From an uncultured Acidobacteriota bacterium (GTDB taxonomy: Bacteria > Acidobacteriota > Thermoanaerobaculia > Multivoradales > UBA5704): a DNA stretch of 64,000 nucleotides. Positions 32,445-61,779 of the stretch are shown one piece after another; the first letter of the stretch is position 1, and the number at the start of each line of letters is the position of its first letter. The notes beneath the pieces are model-generated. The model was given only the letters and a program-made list of their open reading frames with translations. It had not been told where the DNA came from and did no database searches. Where the stretch lies: the NCBI GenBank assembly GCA_963698025.1, contig OY969112.1, positions 1,861,200 through 1,925,199 on the forward strand, written 5' to 3'. A program made the translations under genes and the position numbers.

Positions 32445-32533
32445 GGAGGTTGTAGGGGCGACCTGCGGTCGCCCTCGGCCCGGATACACCGTCGCGATGT
32501 TGAGGGCGACCGCAGGTCGCCCCTACAACCTCC
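32445..32533. repeat. REP family B, inverted pair (GGAGGTTGTAGGGGCGACCTGCGGTCGCCCTC and its reverse complement)
   Basis: It is a perfect 32-nt palindromic unit duplicated in inverted orientation with a 25-nt spacer. The same unit recurs at 48560, 50928, 53040 and 61711. Confidence 0.85.
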
Positions 32534-44400: not shown

Positions 44401-44545
44401 TGGATTCGTGGTGGAATGTCCTTCCTCCGGGCCAAAGGTCCGGGCTTCCTCAGCCCGGTCCATCGGGCCGGGCCAGGCTGAACCTGCCCTCCTTCCTTGC
44501 CTCCCCCCGCCGAACCGCATACCTTAACGGCTGGGGGGACACCGG

Positions 44546-44886
44546 ATGGCGCAGCCGTGGGACGACGATTTCGAGCGCGACGAGGAGCTCTCCCTCGAGG
44601 AGCGGCGCAAGCCCAGGCACCCGCGCAAGTGGAAGGTGCTGCTCCACAACGACGACTTCACCTCCATGGAGTTCGTCACCCACGTCCTGATGACCCACTT
44701 CCACAAGGCCCCGGCGGAGGCCACCCAGATCATGCTGCAGGTGCACAGGAAGGGAGTGGGGCTCGCCGGTGTTTACTCCAGGGAGGTGGCCGAGACCAAG
44801 GTGGCCGAGGTCACCGACGAGGCCCGGGCCGAGGGCATGCCGCTCAAGCTGACCGCCGAGCCCGCGGAAGAAGGAAGAGACGAAGA

Positions 44887-44890
<4 letters not shown>
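44546..44890 (+). CDS. clpS: ATP-dependent Clp protease adaptor ClpS
   Basis: The ClpS core is conserved: KVLLHNDDFTSMEFVTHVL. Confidence 0.9.
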
Positions 44891-47184
<2,294 letters not shown>

Positions 47185-47213: not shown

Positions 47214-48228
47214 GTGTAGGGGCGCAGCATGCTGCGCCCTTTTGCTGCGCCCTTTTGCTGCGCCCTTTTTGCTGCGCCCTTTTGCTGCGCCCTTTTGCTG
47301 CGCCTTTCAACGGTCCGGTCCAGGAAAAAGGGCGCAGCATGCTGCGCCCCTACATACGGAATAGAGAAAGCAGACCTGCATGAGGGCGGACAGAGCGGAG
47401 ATGAGGATCTTGCCGGCGGGCCGGGTCCGGCATTCGATCCGTTGGCAGGGGTACGATTACACGAGCGCGGGTTGGTACTTCGTCACCCTGTGCGCCCAGG
47501 GAAGGGAGTGCCTGTTCGGCGAAGTGCGGGATGGAGCGGTCTTCCCGAGCGAGAGCGGACGGCTCGTGCAATCCTGCTGGGAGGCGATTCCCTCCCATTT
47601 TTCCCAAGCCGAGCTCGATGCCTGGGTCCTGATGCCCAATCACCTGCACGGCATCCTGGCGATCCGTCGCAACTCCCAAGGTGTAGGGGCGCAGCATGCT
47701 GCGCCCTCTCCTCCGGCACGCCGCCCGCCCTTCGTAAACTCTGGAGCCTTCCTCCCCCGCTCCTCACCGCTTCCATCGAACGTCTCTCCGGGTTCCCTGA
47801 GCGCGATCATCCGATCGTTCAAATCGGCGAGCACCCGGGAAGCCAACAAGGTGCGAGGAACGGCCGGCGTGACGATCTGGCAGCGCAACTACTTCGAGCA
47901 CGTGATCCGGGACGACAACGAGTTGGAGAGGATCCGCGCCTACATTCAGGAGAACCCATCCCGCTGGGAGGATGACCAGGAGAACCCTGCCAAGGCTTTG
48001 AAGCCTCCTACCGATCCTTTCCCCAAGGCGTAGGGGCGCAGCATGCTGCGCCCGCTCAACGGTCCGGCCCATGTAGGGGCGCAGCATGCTGCGCCCTTTT
48101 ACTGCGCCCTTTTGCTGCGCCCTTTTGCTGCGCCCTTTTGCTGCGCCCTTTTGCTGCGCCCCTTTTCCTGCGCCCTTTTTCCTGGACCGGACCGTTGAAA
48201 GGGCGCAGCATGCTGCGCCCCTACGCCT
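47214..48228 (+). mobile_element. RAYT (REP-associated tyrosine transposase, IS200/IS605-like Y1 HuH) unit flanked by REP family A palindromes containing tandem 13-mers
   Basis: The left structure (47214-47356) and the right structures (48031-48228) are built from GTAGGGGCGCAGCATGCTGCGCCCCTAC palindromes. Each encloses 6-7 tandem copies of TGCTGCGCCCTTT. The RAYT CDS lies between them. Confidence 0.8.
47380..48033 (+). CDS. REP-associated tyrosine transposase (RAYT, IS200/IS605 TnpA-like)
   Basis: The RAYT motifs are IRWQGYDYTSAGWYFVT, the HuH motif LMPNHLHGIL, and the catalytic Tyr region TIWQRNYFEHVIRD. A REP copy (47686-47711) sits in-frame inside the gene and encodes ...GVGAQHAAP... Confidence 0.85.
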   Translation: MRADRAEMRILPAGRVRHSIRWQGYDYTSAGWYFVTLCAQGRECLFGEVRDGAVFPSESGRLVQSCWEAIPSHFSQAELDAWVLMPNHLHGILAIRRNSQGVGAQHAAPSPPARRPPFVNSGAFLPRSSPLPSNVSPGSLSAIIRSFKSASTREANKVRGTAGVTIWQRNYFEHVIRDDNELERIRAYIQENPSRWEDDQENPAKALKPPTDPFPKA

Positions 48229-48559
48229 GGTGTCCCGACAGTCCCCCACCCTTGCTAAACTACCTCCTCAGGTCGACTCGAAAAGGAGCGGCCCGTTCGA
48301 TCTCCCTCCGGACGGCGGCTTTCCCGATCTCGCGCCCGATCTGCCGGGCCTCGCCCGCGCTGGCGGCTTCGGCACGGTGGACGCCGCCGCGCACGGCGTC
48401 CGGGCGGCGAGCGGAGCCGCGTGCCCGATCAGCTCCCGCTCTGGCTGACCAACCACTACCACCCCTGGCTCTATCGCCCCGCCGACGTCAACCGGGGTAC
48501 GACCCCGGGTGAGGTGATCGATCCTTGAGGCCATGAGGCGGGCGGGGTAAGGCGGCACT

Positions 48560-48630
48560 GAGGGCGACCGCAGGTCGCCCCTACAACCTCCGTTGAAATC
48601 TGTTGTAGGGGCGACCTGCGGTCGCCCTCA
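48560..48630. repeat. REP family B inverted pair
   Basis: The unit has the same 29-32 nt sequence as at 32445. Confidence 0.85.
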
Positions 48631-48687
48631 GCGCCCCCTCCCTGCTCTACAATCCTCCCCACGACATCCGTTCCGAGGAGGATTCCC

Positions 48688-50475
48688 GTGCCCGCGCAAG
48701 CCCGCTCCGCCGTGCTGTTCGCCGTTCTTCTGCTCTCTCTGTCCGCCGCGTCATTCGCGGCGGATTCCCAGGACGTGGACCTCCAGTGGGGAGTCCGCAT
48801 CCCCATGCGCGATGGCGTCGAGCTGGCGGCCACGGTCTTCCGGCCGTCGGGCCAGAAGGAGCCGCTTCCCGTCATCTTCACCCTCACCCCCTATATCGCG
48901 GACAGCTACGAGGACCGCGCGATCTACTTCGCCCGCCATGGCTACGTCTACGCGCTGGTGGACGTCCGCGGGCGGGGCAACTCGGGGGGCGCGTTCACCC
49001 CCTTCGCCCAGGAGGCGCACGACGGCTACGACGCCGTCGAGTGGCTCGCCCGCCAGCCGTGGTCCAACGGCAAGGTGGCGATGTGGGGTGGCTCCTACGC
49101 GGGATACGACCAGTGGGCCACCGCCAAAGAGCGCCCGCCCCACCTGGCCACCATCGTCCCCGCGGCCGCGGTCCACCCCGGGGTCGACTTCCCGCTCTTC
49201 CGCAACGTCTTCTACACCTACGACATGCAGTGGCTGACCTACACCAGCGGCCGGACCAAGAACACCCTCCTGTTCGGCGAAGGTCTCTTCTGGACCCAGA
49301 AGTTCCGCGAGCTCTATCTCTCCCATCGCCCCTTCCGCGAGCTCGACCGCATCGTCGGCAACCCGAGCCCCACGTTCCAGCAGTGGCTCTCCCACCCCAC
49401 CTACGACGACTACTGGCGGGCCATGAACCCCACGCCGGAGCAGCTCGCGAAGATCGACCTGCCCATCCTCACCATCACCGGCCATTACGACGGCGATCAG
49501 CTCGGCGCGCTGACTTTCTACCGCGACCACCTGCGCCTCGCCTCCCCGGCGGCCCGCGATCGCCACTACCTGATCGTCGGCCCCTGGGATCACGCCGGCA
49601 CCCGCACGCCGAACGCCAAAGTGGGGGGCCTGACCTTCGACGACGCGAGCGTCCTCGACCTCAACGCGCTGCACAAGGAGTGGTACGACTGGACGATGAA
49701 GGACGGCCCCCGCCCCGCTTTCCTCGAGAAGAAGGTGGCCTATTACGTGGCCGGCGCCGGGACCGAGACGTGGAAGCGCGCCGACTCCCTGGAGGAGATC
49801 GGCTCCGATCGGCGCACCCTCTATCTCGGTGCCAGCTCTTCATCCGATACGGGCCAGGCCGCGGACGCCTTCCACTCCGGCCGCCTCGCGGCCGCCAGAC
49901 CCGCGGCGACGGCCCCGCCCGGCCGCTACGTCTACGATCCGCTCGACGTCCACTCGGCCGACGACCTCGAGAATTTCACCCCGGGGGCCCTCGTCGATCA
50001 GAGCGACGCCCTCGGCAAGCTCGGCAACGGCGCCGTCTATCACAGCGAGCCGTTCCCCGAGGCGACCGAGATCTCCGGGCAGGTGAAGCTCACCCTCTGG
50101 ATGGCCCTCGACGTCCCCGACACCGACTTCGAGGCCGACCTCTACGAGATCCTGCCGTACGGCGGCAGCGTCCGCCTCGCCTCGGACTTCCTGCGCGCCC
50201 GCTACCGCGGCTCGCTGGAGAAGGAGACGCCGGTGCCCAGGGGGGAGATCGTGCGCTACGACTTCACCGCCTTCTCCTGGTTCTCCCGCCGGGTCGCCAA
50301 GGGGAGCCGGCTGCGCCTGGTGGTCTCCTGCCCCAACTCGATCGACTTCGAGAAGAACTACAACTCGGGCGGCGTGGTGGCCGGCGAGACGGCCAAGGAC
50401 GCCCGTACGGCCCACGTCGCCATCTACCACGACGCCAGGCATCCGAGCGCTCTGGAGATCCCTATCGTGCACTGA
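48688..50475 (+). CDS. CocE/NonD family hydrolase (S15 X-Pro dipeptidyl-peptidase-like), secreted
   Basis: It has a signal peptide and the nucleophile elbow GGSYAG. The family block FTLTPYIADSYEDRAIYFARHGYVYALVDVRGRGNSGG is present. The start is GTG. Confidence 0.9.
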   Translation: MPAQARSAVLFAVLLLSLSAASFAADSQDVDLQWGVRIPMRDGVELAATVFRPSGQKEPLPVIFTLTPYIADSYEDRAIYFARHGYVYALVDVRGRGNSGGAFTPFAQEAHDGYDAVEWLARQPWSNGKVAMWGGSYAGYDQWATAKERPPHLATIVPAAAVHPGVDFPLFRNVFYTYDMQWLTYTSGRTKNTLLFGEGLFWTQKFRELYLSHRPFRELDRIVGNPSPTFQQWLSHPTYDDYWRAMNPTPEQLAKIDLPILTITGHYDGDQLGALTFYRDHLRLASPAARDRHYLIVGPWDHAGTRTPNAKVGGLTFDDASVLDLNALHKEWYDWTMKDGPRPAFLEKKVAYYVAGAGTETWKRADSLEEIGSDRRTLYLGASSSSDTGQAADAFHSGRLAAARPAATAPPGRYVYDPLDVHSADDLENFTPGALVDQSDALGKLGNGAVYHSEPFPEATEISGQVKLTLWMALDVPDTDFEADLYEILPYGGSVRLASDFLRARYRGSLEKETPVPRGEIVRYDFTAFSWFSRRVAKGSRLRLVVSCPNSIDFEKNYNSGGVVAGETAKDARTAHVAIYHDARHPSALEIPIVH

Positions 50476-50927: not shown

Positions 50928-50995
50928 CCAGGGCGACCGCAGGTCGCCCCTACAACCTCCGTCGCGATCCGTTGTAGGGGCGACCTGCGGTCGCC
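50928..50995. repeat. REP family B inverted pair
   Basis: Same unit as at 32445. It lies directly downstream of the helicase gene. Confidence 0.85.
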
Positions 50996-51025
50996 CGGCG
51001 CCGCTGGTTTCTTGCAGGCCCGCCC

Positions 51026-53002
51026 CTACCGCCCCCCATACCAGACCCGCCGGAAGGTTTCGTAGCCCAGCGGCGGCCGGTCGCCGCGGAAGTTGTCCTC
51101 GCAGTCGATCACCACGCAGGTCTCGGTGCCGCCGAACTTCGGACCGCGCAGGCCGCGGCCGACGATCTGCTCGTAGAGAACCCGGCTCACCGTCGGCCGC
51201 GCCATCACCACGTGCGTCACCCGCGGGGCGTCGAAGCCGGTGGTCAGCACCTCGCAGTTGCACAGCACGCGCAGCTCCCCCTGCTTGAAGTCGTTCACCA
51301 CCTGCCTGCGGGTGACGTCGCGGGTGACGCCGCTCAGCACCGCCGCCGGTGCTCCGGCCTGCCGCAGCAGGAAGGCCATGCACTCGGCGTCGCGGACGCT
51401 GGGCCCGAAGTAGAGAATGGAATTGGCCGGATCGCCGGCCAGCGGCAGCAGGTGCTGCAGGATCACCAGCCGCCGGGGGGTGTTGTCGGTGCGGATGGCC
51501 AGGATGCGGTCCAGACGCTCCAGCTCCTGCTCGGAGAGGAGCGGCGAGGTGGGCGGGTCCGGCAGGCGGATCGTCGTCGGCGTCCGGATCGTCTCGAAGA
51601 CCGGCCGCGCCAGCACTCCCATCTCCTGGAGGGTGATCCGGGGGCTCTCGCCGAGCGTGCGAACGGGCTCCACCAGACGGTGGAAGATCTCTTTCAGCTC
51701 GCGCGTCCCCTCCTCGGGATCGTCCCCCAGGTACTCCATGCGGAACGGCGTCGCGGTGAGCCCCACGACCGAGACCCGCCGGTCCGGCGGCGCCAGCGCC
51801 TCCAGGATTCGCCTATAGGAGGGTGCCGCCGCGCGGTGCGCCTCGTCGATGACCACCAGCCCGAGCGCGCCCCTCAGGTCCGCCAGCACGGCTTCGCTCC
51901 CCTGGGCGCGCCCCTCCAGCAGGCCGACCAGCCGGTGCGGCGTCGTCACCAGCACGCTCGGCCGCTGGAGGGAGCGCCGCAGGGTCTGGTGGTGGGCGTG
52001 GAGATCCGACGTGTGGGAACCCCAGAAACGGATCATCGTGGTGGGGACCACGTCCTCCTGGGATTCCCAGACCTGCTTGCAACAGGCGCAGGCCTGCTCG
52101 CACAGCTCCTCGGTATGGGCCAGCCAGAGGACGGTGCCGCGATCGGCCAGATCGCGCTCGCGGTCGTAGCGGTCGAACATCCACCAGGCGATGCTCTCCA
52201 CCGCCACCCGCGTCTTGCCGCTCCCCGTGGGCAGGGCCACCAGACAGCGCCGGCCGAGCGGCTCCTGGAGAGTTTCGAGCACGCCGCGCTGCACCTCCCG
52301 CTGGAACGGCTGCAAGGGGCGCAGACGGAACCGCCCCTCCAGATATTCGAGATCGGGCGGCACCTCCGGGGCCGGCACGCCGGCGAGCTCCGGCGGGAAC
52401 TCCACCTGGGCCACGAACTCGCTCGCCGACGGCTTGCCCGGATGCCAGCGCCGCGGCGCCGGCCGGCCCGTGACGCGCGCCACCGCCTCCCGCGTCTTGA
52501 GATCGCCGAACAGGTCCACCCCGTGCTGAAGCGCCAGGGCGGTGGCCAGCTCCCGCTTGGTGCCCCGGCGGTCCACCCCCTCGAACTCCCGGCGCGCCTG
52601 GCGAAGGGTATAGAGGAGAGAGCCCAGCAGCTCCTCCAGCTCGGCATGCTGGAGCAGCTCGGCCAGCCGCTCGACCGTCCGCGCCTCCCAATCCGCCCGC
52701 AGCAGGATCGGCCGGGCCGTCTCCTCGTCGGGGAGGCGCCCGCGGCGCCGCCGGGCCTCGAATCCTCCCTTGCCGGGAGGTCCGGGCTCGATCTCGGGAT
52801 TCCGCGCCAGGACCCGCTGGAGCTCCCGGTACTCCTCCTCCCCCAACCCCCAGGCCTCGAGGATCTCCTCCTTGCTCAAGCCGCCGGTGTCGAGGACGGA
52901 GCGGGCGATTTCAGAAGAGGCGTAGGATTCCACAGTGGCGGCAAGCGATAATTTTTTCCATCTTATCGCGAGATCGGCGTGCGTGCCTGCGACCGCCGGC
53001 AA
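51026..53002 (-). CDS. SF2 DEAD/DEAH-box helicase family protein (ResIII-like helicase core) with a ~200-aa N-terminal extension
   Basis: Motif I is LPTGSGKTRVA and motif II is VVIDEAHRAA. The C-terminal helicase block is LTTGFDAPRVTHVVMARP ... QIVGRGLRG. The start is uncertain. Confidence 0.85.
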   Translation of the reverse strand: MPAVAGTHADLAIRWKKLSLAATVESYASSEIARSVLDTGGLSKEEILEAWGLGEEEYRELQRVLARNPEIEPGPPGKGGFEARRRRGRLPDEETARPILLRADWEARTVERLAELLQHAELEELLGSLLYTLRQARREFEGVDRRGTKRELATALALQHGVDLFGDLKTREAVARVTGRPAPRRWHPGKPSASEFVAQVEFPPELAGVPAPEVPPDLEYLEGRFRLRPLQPFQREVQRGVLETLQEPLGRRCLVALPTGSGKTRVAVESIAWWMFDRYDRERDLADRGTVLWLAHTEELCEQACACCKQVWESQEDVVPTTMIRFWGSHTSDLHAHHQTLRRSLQRPSVLVTTPHRLVGLLEGRAQGSEAVLADLRGALGLVVIDEAHRAAAPSYRRILEALAPPDRRVSVVGLTATPFRMEYLGDDPEEGTRELKEIFHRLVEPVRTLGESPRITLQEMGVLARPVFETIRTPTTIRLPDPPTSPLLSEQELERLDRILAIRTDNTPRRLVILQHLLPLAGDPANSILYFGPSVRDAECMAFLLRQAGAPAAVLSGVTRDVTRRQVVNDFKQGELRVLCNCEVLTTGFDAPRVTHVVMARPTVSRVLYEQIVGRGLRGPKFGGTETCVVIDCEDNFRGDRPPLGYETFRRVWYGGR

Positions 53003-53039: not shown

Positions 53040-53110
53040 GAGGGCGACCGCAGGTCGCCCCTACAACCGCGGCCGGGATCTGTTGTAGGGGCGACCTGCG
53101 GTCGCCCTCA
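53040..53110. repeat. REP family B inverted pair
   Basis: Same unit as at 32445. It lies directly upstream of the helicase gene. Confidence 0.85.
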
Positions 53111-61710: not shown

Positions 61711-61779
61711 GAGGGCGACCACAGGTCGCCCTACACCCGAGGTCGAGATCTGGTGTAGGGGCGACCTGCGGTCGCCCTC
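61711..61779. repeat. REP family B inverted pair (slightly diverged)
   Basis: GAGGGCGACCACAGGTCGCCCTACAC ... GGTGTAGGGGCGACCTGCGGTCGCCCTC. Confidence 0.8.

Follow-up and report, generated by a model that had tools for sequence, protein, structure and literature searches.

What is a copy of a repetitive extragenic palindrome (REP) doing, in frame, inside the gene for a REP-associated tyrosine transposase (RAYT) that the same palindrome also brackets, and what keeps it intact? The question is raised by a 64-kb stretch of DNA from an uncultured member of the Acidobacteriota (hereafter the window), in which one RAYT gene and six copies of a REP that we call REP-A lie together. An earlier note on this DNA had presented the arrangement as an unusual case of a transposase targeted by its own REP. 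We conclude, with a probability of roughly 0.85, that the region is a REPtron with a gene of subclass 2.4 (RAYT Group 4), cognate REP-A pairs and an in-gene REP that was inherited with the gene. The in-gene arrangement is real, and it is an ordinary new example of a hallmark published in 2018.

The RAYT and its REPs

The gene product is, as judged from homology, a RAYT of the Y1/HuH type, that is, a domesticated hairpin-cutting transposase, and the earlier note's assignment to this group was borne out by domain score, motif alignment and fold. The protein matched the Pfam family Y1_Tnp at 26.8 bits, above the cut-off of 23, and when a profile of 25 homologs (43–70% identity) was compared with the sequences in the PDB, the only solved structure matched was that of E. 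coli TnpAREP (PDB 4ER8). An AlphaFold model of the protein, with a predicted local distance difference test score (pLDDT) of 80.6, likewise had chain A of 4ER8 as its best fold match (E 2.7e-6, root-mean-square deviation 2.5 Å), with IS200/IS605 transposases next. The sequence MPNHLHG aligns with PEHMH of 4ER8 and contains H88 and H90, both invariant in the 25 aligned sequences, and every column that is invariant across those sequences is also present in the window RAYT. Within RAYIQENP, Y188 (nearly invariant) and N192 (invariant) fall on the catalytic tyrosine and a metal ligand of 4ER8, namely Y115 and N119 on helix αD. This alignment moves the catalytic tyrosine from WQRNYFEH, where the earlier note had put it, to RAYIQENP; WQRNYFEH is the GTAG-binding motif, whose residues W167, Q168, F172, E173, H174 and R177 align to W94, Q95, W99, E100, H101 and R104 among the GTAG-binding residues of E. 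coli TnpAREP listed in Fig. S11 of Quentin et al. (2018; BMC Genomics 19:475, PMC6006769). The database entry for the same protein (P0001), from a 7.05-Mb contig, is 210 aa long and begins at an ATG seven codons downstream of the start of the open reading frame. In a search of genome contigs, the best RAYT match had 49% identity.

The core of REP-A is a 20-nt perfect palindrome, GGGCGCAGCATGCTGCGCCC, whose six copies (starts at 47220, 47330, 47687, 48034, 48077 and 48201) all fall within 47220–48220; none occurs elsewhere in the 64 kb, and none arose in 100 shuffles. The flanking palindromes described as perfect in the earlier note are perfect over these 20 nt, but the full 28-nt palindrome that it quoted, GTAGGGGCGCAGCATGCTGCGCCCCTAC, is absent from the window. 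There is one four-base foot per copy: GTAG on the plus strand at 47216, 47683, 48030 and 48073, or CTAC as the last bases of the two inverted copies (ending at 47353 and 48224). Five of the copies flank the gene, with feet and orientations that confirm inverted pairs of GTAG-footed REPs on its two sides, as had been proposed. On both sides a 25-nt spacer lies between an array of tandem repeats and the inverted REP, and the two elements are long, REPIN-like (REP doublet forming hairpin) hairpins that hold the arrays in their loops. Folded as single-stranded DNA, the left element (47216–47353) gives −47.4 kcal/mol (z −7.0) and the right element (48026–48228) −81.2 kcal/mol (z −11.9). An Rfam scan of the region gave only sub-threshold matches to miRNA-precursor models, which fit any long hairpin, and a promoter/terminator scan of the region flagged no REP.

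A Y1 HuH fold with sub-terminal hairpins on either side is also what an autonomous IS200/IS605 insertion sequence would present, with the palindromes as its left-end and right-end hairpins. This alternative is very improbable. The protein scored 16.5 bits with the NCBIfam IS200 model, whose cut-off is 55, and the best matches of the protein are TnpAREP rather than IS200 transposases; the identical hairpin stands on both sides and within the gene; and the window holds one copy of the RAYT and no tnpB. The exact 24-nt REP-A (foot and palindrome) was found in at least 120 metagenome stretches, and 90 of its 127 sites there lie away from any RAYT motif, which is the behaviour of a REP rather than of an insertion-sequence end (66 of the 127 sites are double-foot).

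The sixth copy, GTAGGGGCGCAGCATGCTGCGCCC, lies inside the gene. It is identical at all 24 positions to the five flanking copies, has a GTAG foot but no 3′ CTAC, and encodes in frame the peptide VGAQHAAP (residues 102–109) between the HuH and tyrosine motifs, as the earlier note had recognized, although with coordinates (47686–47711) that are off by 3–5 nt. In the AlphaFold model, residues 96–139, which include this peptide, have no secondary structure and a pLDDT of about 51–56; the insert thus falls in an unstructured, low-confidence loop, which answers the structural check that had been suggested. The REP accounts for only eight residues because the unit is 24 nt long, and not for the roughly 35 aa by which it was thought to have lengthened the linker. 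The remainder of the long linker (PSPPARRPPFVNSGAFLPRSSP...; ...PPFVNSGAFLPR...) is common, as protein sequence, to the closest relatives (P0003–P0007). The linker measures 76 aa in the window RAYT, as against a family median of 61 aa (range 49–114 aa among 110 homologs).

Conservation of the in-gene palindrome

The RAYT gene sits between clpA (44889–47184) and a PepX-like hydrolase gene (48688–50475), and the order clpA–RAYT–PepX is kept on a second contig, L081, whose RAYT (P0007) has 57% amino-acid identity to that of the window and whose PepX_C is a fragment. The P0007 gene contains the same 24-nt REP at the aligned position, and REP-A copies also flank it. Between the two genes the REP is identical at 24 of 24 positions, including all eight third-codon positions, while elsewhere they agree at 58% of nucleotides and 41% of third positions. 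As the same 24 nt occupy the same place in L081, the in-gene copy was inherited and is not recent. A protein alignment puts the REP at this place in P0003 (64% identity), P0004 and P0006 as well as P0007.

These observations bear on the idea that a REP of this genome transposed recently and privately into its own RAYT gene, landing in frame by chance and adding about 35 aa. The perfect identity between the in-gene and flanking copies fits such an event, and a clean VGAQHAAP is missing from P0002 and P0016, the nearest relatives at the protein level, which shows turnover at the site. REP insertions into genes are also known: Di Nocera et al. (2013) described GTAG REPs translated in frame, sporadically, within intact unrelated genes, many of them for replication or genome repair (for example recB). 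In the present locus, by contrast, it is the cognate transposase gene that carries the REP, as a feature of the whole family. Given the shared position in the syntenic gene and in P0003, P0004, P0006 and P0007, the homologous remainder of the extra linker, and a palindrome in most homologs (see below), we consider a recent, private insertion very unlikely, and L081 already contradicts it.

To survey the family, 80 homolog loci from many phyla were fetched, their DNA was scanned from the HuH motif to WQRN, and 74 genes were counted. In 58 of the 74 genes the linker contained a perfect stem of 8 bp or more, mostly a 28-nt GTAGGGGC...GCCCCTAC palindrome; the same count was 1/74 in N-terminal coding segments, 1/74 in C-terminal segments and 0/74 in shuffled linkers. 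Double-foot 28-mers were present at 29 linker sites. A palindrome in the same loop in most homologs across phyla, and its publication as a hallmark, remove the grounds for regarding self-targeting of the gene as unusual. The inner bases of the palindrome vary between loci yet stay complementary (e.g., GCGCAGCATGCTGCGC, GCACGGCATGCCGTGC, GCGGTTCGCGAACCGC and GCGAAAAATTTTTCGC). In a set of 31 distinct 28-mers, chosen because they begin with GTAGGGG in the linker, those in a register of 29 nt or shorter being set aside, double-sided changes occurred at 7 of the 14 pairs, in 69 cells as against 19.9 ± 3.8 in shuffles (0 of 500 reached the observed value), and the covariation score was 0.415, compared with 0.07–0.16 when the partners were slid.

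The reading frame tells the same story. The linkers contain 63 GTAGGGG sites, 42 in frame a (V-G-...), 21 in frame c (R-G-...) and none in the frame that would read TAG, the last by construction because open linkers were required. Of 120 homologous proteins, 26 have VGAQHAAP at this point of the alignment, so that, taken at face value, orthologs do share the peptide, the observation that the earlier note had named as speaking against a REP insertion; the same recurrence is what would be expected if VGAQHAAP were a conserved functional peptide and the palindrome a mere by-product of its codons. Other homologs, however, have RGGSRTAPT, GRGTACRAPT, VGAKNFSPL or VGAGLKPAPT at this place, unrelated peptides each of which translates a perfect palindrome of its own, read in one or the other of two frames. 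The use of two frames, together with the compensatory changes, shows that the DNA palindrome is conserved and not the peptide. The invariance of all eight third-codon positions between the window and L081, and the modelled disorder of the region, add to the case, and selection on the peptide is a very remote explanation.

In one subclade, an identical 28-mer, GTAGGGGCGGTTCGCGAACCGCCCCTAC, is read in one frame in nine genes on eight contigs (L020, L021, L030, L036, L039, L064, L070 and L077) that are annotated as Nitrospirae, Chloroflexi/Chloroflexota, Calditrichaeota, Dehalococcoidia, Anaerolineaceae and a filamentous cyanobacterium. The palindrome lies 39–46 nt from the HuH motif in these genes, with one at 70 nt; the flanking conserved core is 62% identical overall and 42% identical at third positions; and most of the genes have no copy of the palindrome core within ±3 kb. 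An identical 28-mer amid so diverged a core implies either direct selection on the hairpin or continual homogenization from dispersed copies.

Whether the in-gene REP is thereby a selected cis-acting hairpin rather than a passenger, for example a self-operator or mRNA hairpin that limits expression, or a protected seed or master copy, is a tentative proposition to which we give less than even weight. The perfect REP against saturated synonymous sites in the comparison with L081, the nine genes with their identical 28-mer and mostly no nearby copies, and the strong compensatory covariation all favour it. Against it, intact genes have decayed or absent copies (L001, L007, L025, L026 and L037) or lack a clean one (P0002, P0005 and P0016), so turnover occurs at the site; the offset from the HuH motif to the palindrome varies from 30 to 244 nt and the copy number from one to three per gene; and homogenization from dispersed genomic copies could maintain the identity.

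Several features of the surveyed loci were noted alongside. The REP type of the GTAGGGGCGGTTCGCGAACCGCCCCTAC genes tracks the RAYT subclade rather than host taxonomy. Two adjacent RAYT paralogs have differing in-gene palindrome types in L070 (2462–2650 and 3205–3372) and L071 (3253–3435 and 4240–4500) and the same type in L030 (1734–1922 and 3220–3408), while in L048 (218–508 and 3205–3393) only one of the pair has a palindrome. The linker of a Poribacteria RAYT (L059, 2545–2958 and 3205–3555) holds three REP copies in a 122-aa stretch from HuH to WQRN, with an 81-nt in-gene repeat, and just upstream of this gene stand 15 tandem whole REPs (28-mers). In L036 (Calditrichaeota), a 36-nt repeat, GTTGTGGCTTGATGCAAAATATCGATAACTAACAAT, recurs roughly ten times with starts about 65 nt apart (1501–2394), some 600 nt upstream of a RAYT, and resembles an array of clustered regularly interspaced short palindromic repeats (CRISPR).

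Tandem arrays, dispersed REPs and gene neighbourhood

The features of the window are collected in Table 1.

Table 1 Coordinates in the window of the RAYT gene, its motifs, REP-A copies, spacers, tandem arrays and REP-B places (TRF, Tandem Repeats Finder).
Feature	Position	Strand	Remarks
RAYT (TnpAREP) gene, predicted	47380..48033	+	217 aa; alternative start 47401
HuH motif, H88 and H90	47641-47649		within RAYT gene
Variable β3/αC loop, residues 96-139	47665..47796	+	from structure model and Quentin et al. 2018, Fig. S7 legend
GTAG-binding motif WQRNYFEHVIR (by homology)	begins 47878		within RAYT gene
Catalytic Y188 (by homology)	47941-47943		within RAYT gene; N192 follows
REP-A copy a, GTAG foot and 20-nt palindrome	47216..47239	+	32 nt past clpA stop
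Array, 5.7 x 13-mer TGCTGCGCCCTTT	47230..47304	+	TRF
REPIN spacer TTTCAACGGTCCGGTCCAGGAAAAA	47305..47329	+	exact reverse complement of 48176-48200
REP-A copy b, inverted	47330..47353	-	CTAC 47350-47353; 28-bp stem with copy a on single-stranded DNA
In-gene REP-A copy	47683..47706	+	in frame, residues 102-109
REP-A copy c	48030..48053	+	GTAG foot provides RAYT stop codon TAG (48031-48033)
Partial spacer GCTCAACGGTCCGGCCCAT	48054..48072	+	pairs with 48183-48200
REP-A copy d	48073..48096	+	
Array, 7.1 x 13-mer TGCTGCGCCCTTT	48087..48179	+	TRF; variant units TACTGCGCCC, TCCTGCGCCC
Spacer in inverted orientation, TTTTTCCTGGACCGGACCGTTGAAA	48176..48200	+	reverse complement of left spacer
REP-A copy e, inverted	48201..48224	-	with copy c closes long hairpin over 48026-48228
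REP-B, first place	32452-32526		
REP-B, second place	48550-48639		
REP-B, third place	50945-51029		
REP-B, fourth place	53056-53093		
REP-B, fifth place	61755-61777		

The 13-mer repeats within the flanking structures, which the earlier note had singled out as unusual, are real, and TRF found no further TGCTGCGCCCTTT array in the 64 kb, but similar half-REP arrays recur at other loci. The 13-mer unit combines the REP's 3′ arm with TTT; in the left array, the arm of the REP itself serves as the first unit. Elsewhere, an 11-mer is repeated seven times right after a REP upstream of the RAYT gene in L009, an 18-mer 4.8 times, ending in a full REP, in L020, and an 18-mer 6.2 times in L044; in L042 a half-REP array lies within the RAYT gene. 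Dispersed REP-A sites carry such arrays too (L163 and, weakly, L165). That the arrays are footprints of the RAYT acting in cis was considered and dropped, as their enrichment near RAYT genes was not significant (5 of 82 RAYT loci vs. 2–3 of 120 dispersed REP-A loci; Fisher p = 0.12–0.27). The absence of a significant difference in frequency favours slippage over a RAYT-specific process, and the arrays most likely arose by hairpin-promoted slipped-strand mispairing that duplicated one REP arm together with TTT.

A second REP family, REP-B (GTAGGGGCGACCTGCGGTCGCCC), is present as nine copies at five places in the window, mostly as inverted pairs. It has in common with REP-A the GTAG foot and five basal pairs (GGGCG/CGCCC) and differs in the upper stem; it was absent from 200 other fetched loci.

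The ClpA relatives put the host in the Thermoanaerobaculia, within the Acidobacteriota. In the relative with 99% ClpA identity (L202, 5647–5692), the contig ends exactly at REP-A plus TTTT after clpA. Beyond clpA, three other relatives, which by ClpA are closer than L081, have protein kinases (L203, 6334–6420), a phage-type integrase (L204, 6358–6640) and a penicillin amidase (L205, 6337–6440), respectively. The GC content at third codon positions is 0.78 in the RAYT gene, compared with 0.95 in clpA and 0.93 in the PepX-like gene; the codon composition of the RAYT is thus atypical although its location is kept in L081. The mechanically called open reading frame of clpA (44497–47184) begins about 130 codons ahead of the conserved start MKISADL; the actual product is the 765-aa form (P0121), and clpS precedes clpA in relatives.

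Relation to known REP systems and significance

Subclass 2.4 of the TnpA-Y1 proteins was defined by Quentin et al., who assigned to it all 100 RAYT Group 4 sequences of Bertels 2017. In their account the subclass is characterized by NH[IFV]H, WQ and YIxNNP motifs, by an insertion of highly variable length and sequence between β3 and αC, and by long REPs whose stem base consists of three G-C pairs and which occur in "double foot" forms, GT[AG]G...C[TC]AC; an in-frame REP within the gene, between HuH and Y, is given there as a hallmark, with little effect on the protein suggested. The locus described here resembles this account in its variable β3/αC loop insertion, in its in-frame in-gene REP and in the scatter of its family across phyla, as well as in its GTAG-footed REPs with a GGG...CCC stem base and in the double-foot forms of its relatives, though the window copies are all single-foot. 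The tandem half-REP arrays on both flanks are another difference: the word "tandem" is absent from the main text of Quentin et al., in which short repeats appear as in-gene ones (Fig. S6). As far as the available part of that paper goes, the class Thermoanaerobaculia is not named there. The conservation of nucleotides against saturated synonymous sites was measured here and not in that study.

E. coli TnpAREP (Ton-Hoang 2012; Messing 2012) shares with the window RAYT its fold, the HuH motif, Y115/N119, the GTAG-binding residues and 5′ GTAG REPs that flank the gene, at a sequence identity of about 17%. The E. coli REPs are imperfect hairpins in which a bulge is required for binding, whereas those of the window are perfect palindromes, and E. 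coli TnpAREP has a short linker without an in-gene REP and a C-terminal extension that the window RAYT lacks. The REPIN–RAYT systems of Pseudomonas (Bertels & Rainey 2011) are similar in that two inverted REPs and a short spacer form one hairpin and in that a single RAYT is flanked; they differ in having RAYTs of group 2/3, hundreds of REPINs per genome and no in-gene copy, whereas REP-A occurs only at the gene in the 64 kb examined.

Four points weigh against assigning the region to a subclass 2.4 REPtron with inherited REPs. The motifs of the window RAYT (NHLH, WQ and YIQENP) match those given for the subclass only approximately, as conservative variants that fit the looser pattern NHxH, WQ and YIxxNP, though NHLH is also present in many of the homologs found. 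The NCBIfam model REP_Tyr_transpos scored 66.7 bits, below its cut-off of 80, in a match that is divided into two pieces by the loop. The REP that is dispersed in the 64 kb is REP-B and not the RAYT-linked REP-A. Finally, no REP or RAYT follows clpA in L203, L204 or L205 (96%, 90% and 87% ClpA identity), so the locus is not stably syntenic.

A working model of the subclass 2.4 REPtron would have REPIN-like inverted REP-A pairs bracketing the RAYT and a further REP in the loop, modelled as disordered, that joins the HuH strand to helix αC. As its homology to E. coli TnpAREP suggests, the enzyme would bind the folded REP on single-stranded DNA, with W167, Q168, E173, H174 and R177 reading the GTAG foot and with a metal held by H88, H90 and N192, and Y188 would cut and rejoin the DNA, thereby moving or copying REPs. 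The in-gene REP, a hallmark of the class, was inherited with the gene. It would be tolerated because the loop is permissive, with the REP occurring in no more than the two frames that lack a stop (read as VGAQHAAP or as RG... peptides), and either selection acting on the hairpin or ongoing homogenization against other copies may keep it perfect at every nucleotide.

The locus thus adds one more subclass 2.4 REPtron, in a genome of the Thermoanaerobaculia. What goes beyond Quentin et al. is that the REP has stayed perfect while the gene around it has diverged to saturation, which the published view of a tolerated insertion leaves unexplained. That the RAYT-linked REP-A is unlike the dispersed REP-B raises the question of what a RAYT actually recognizes in a REP. 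If the in-gene copy does act as a hairpin in cis, the gene and its substrate would form one co-inherited unit, through which the enzyme might sense or limit itself or the REP population might be re-seeded.

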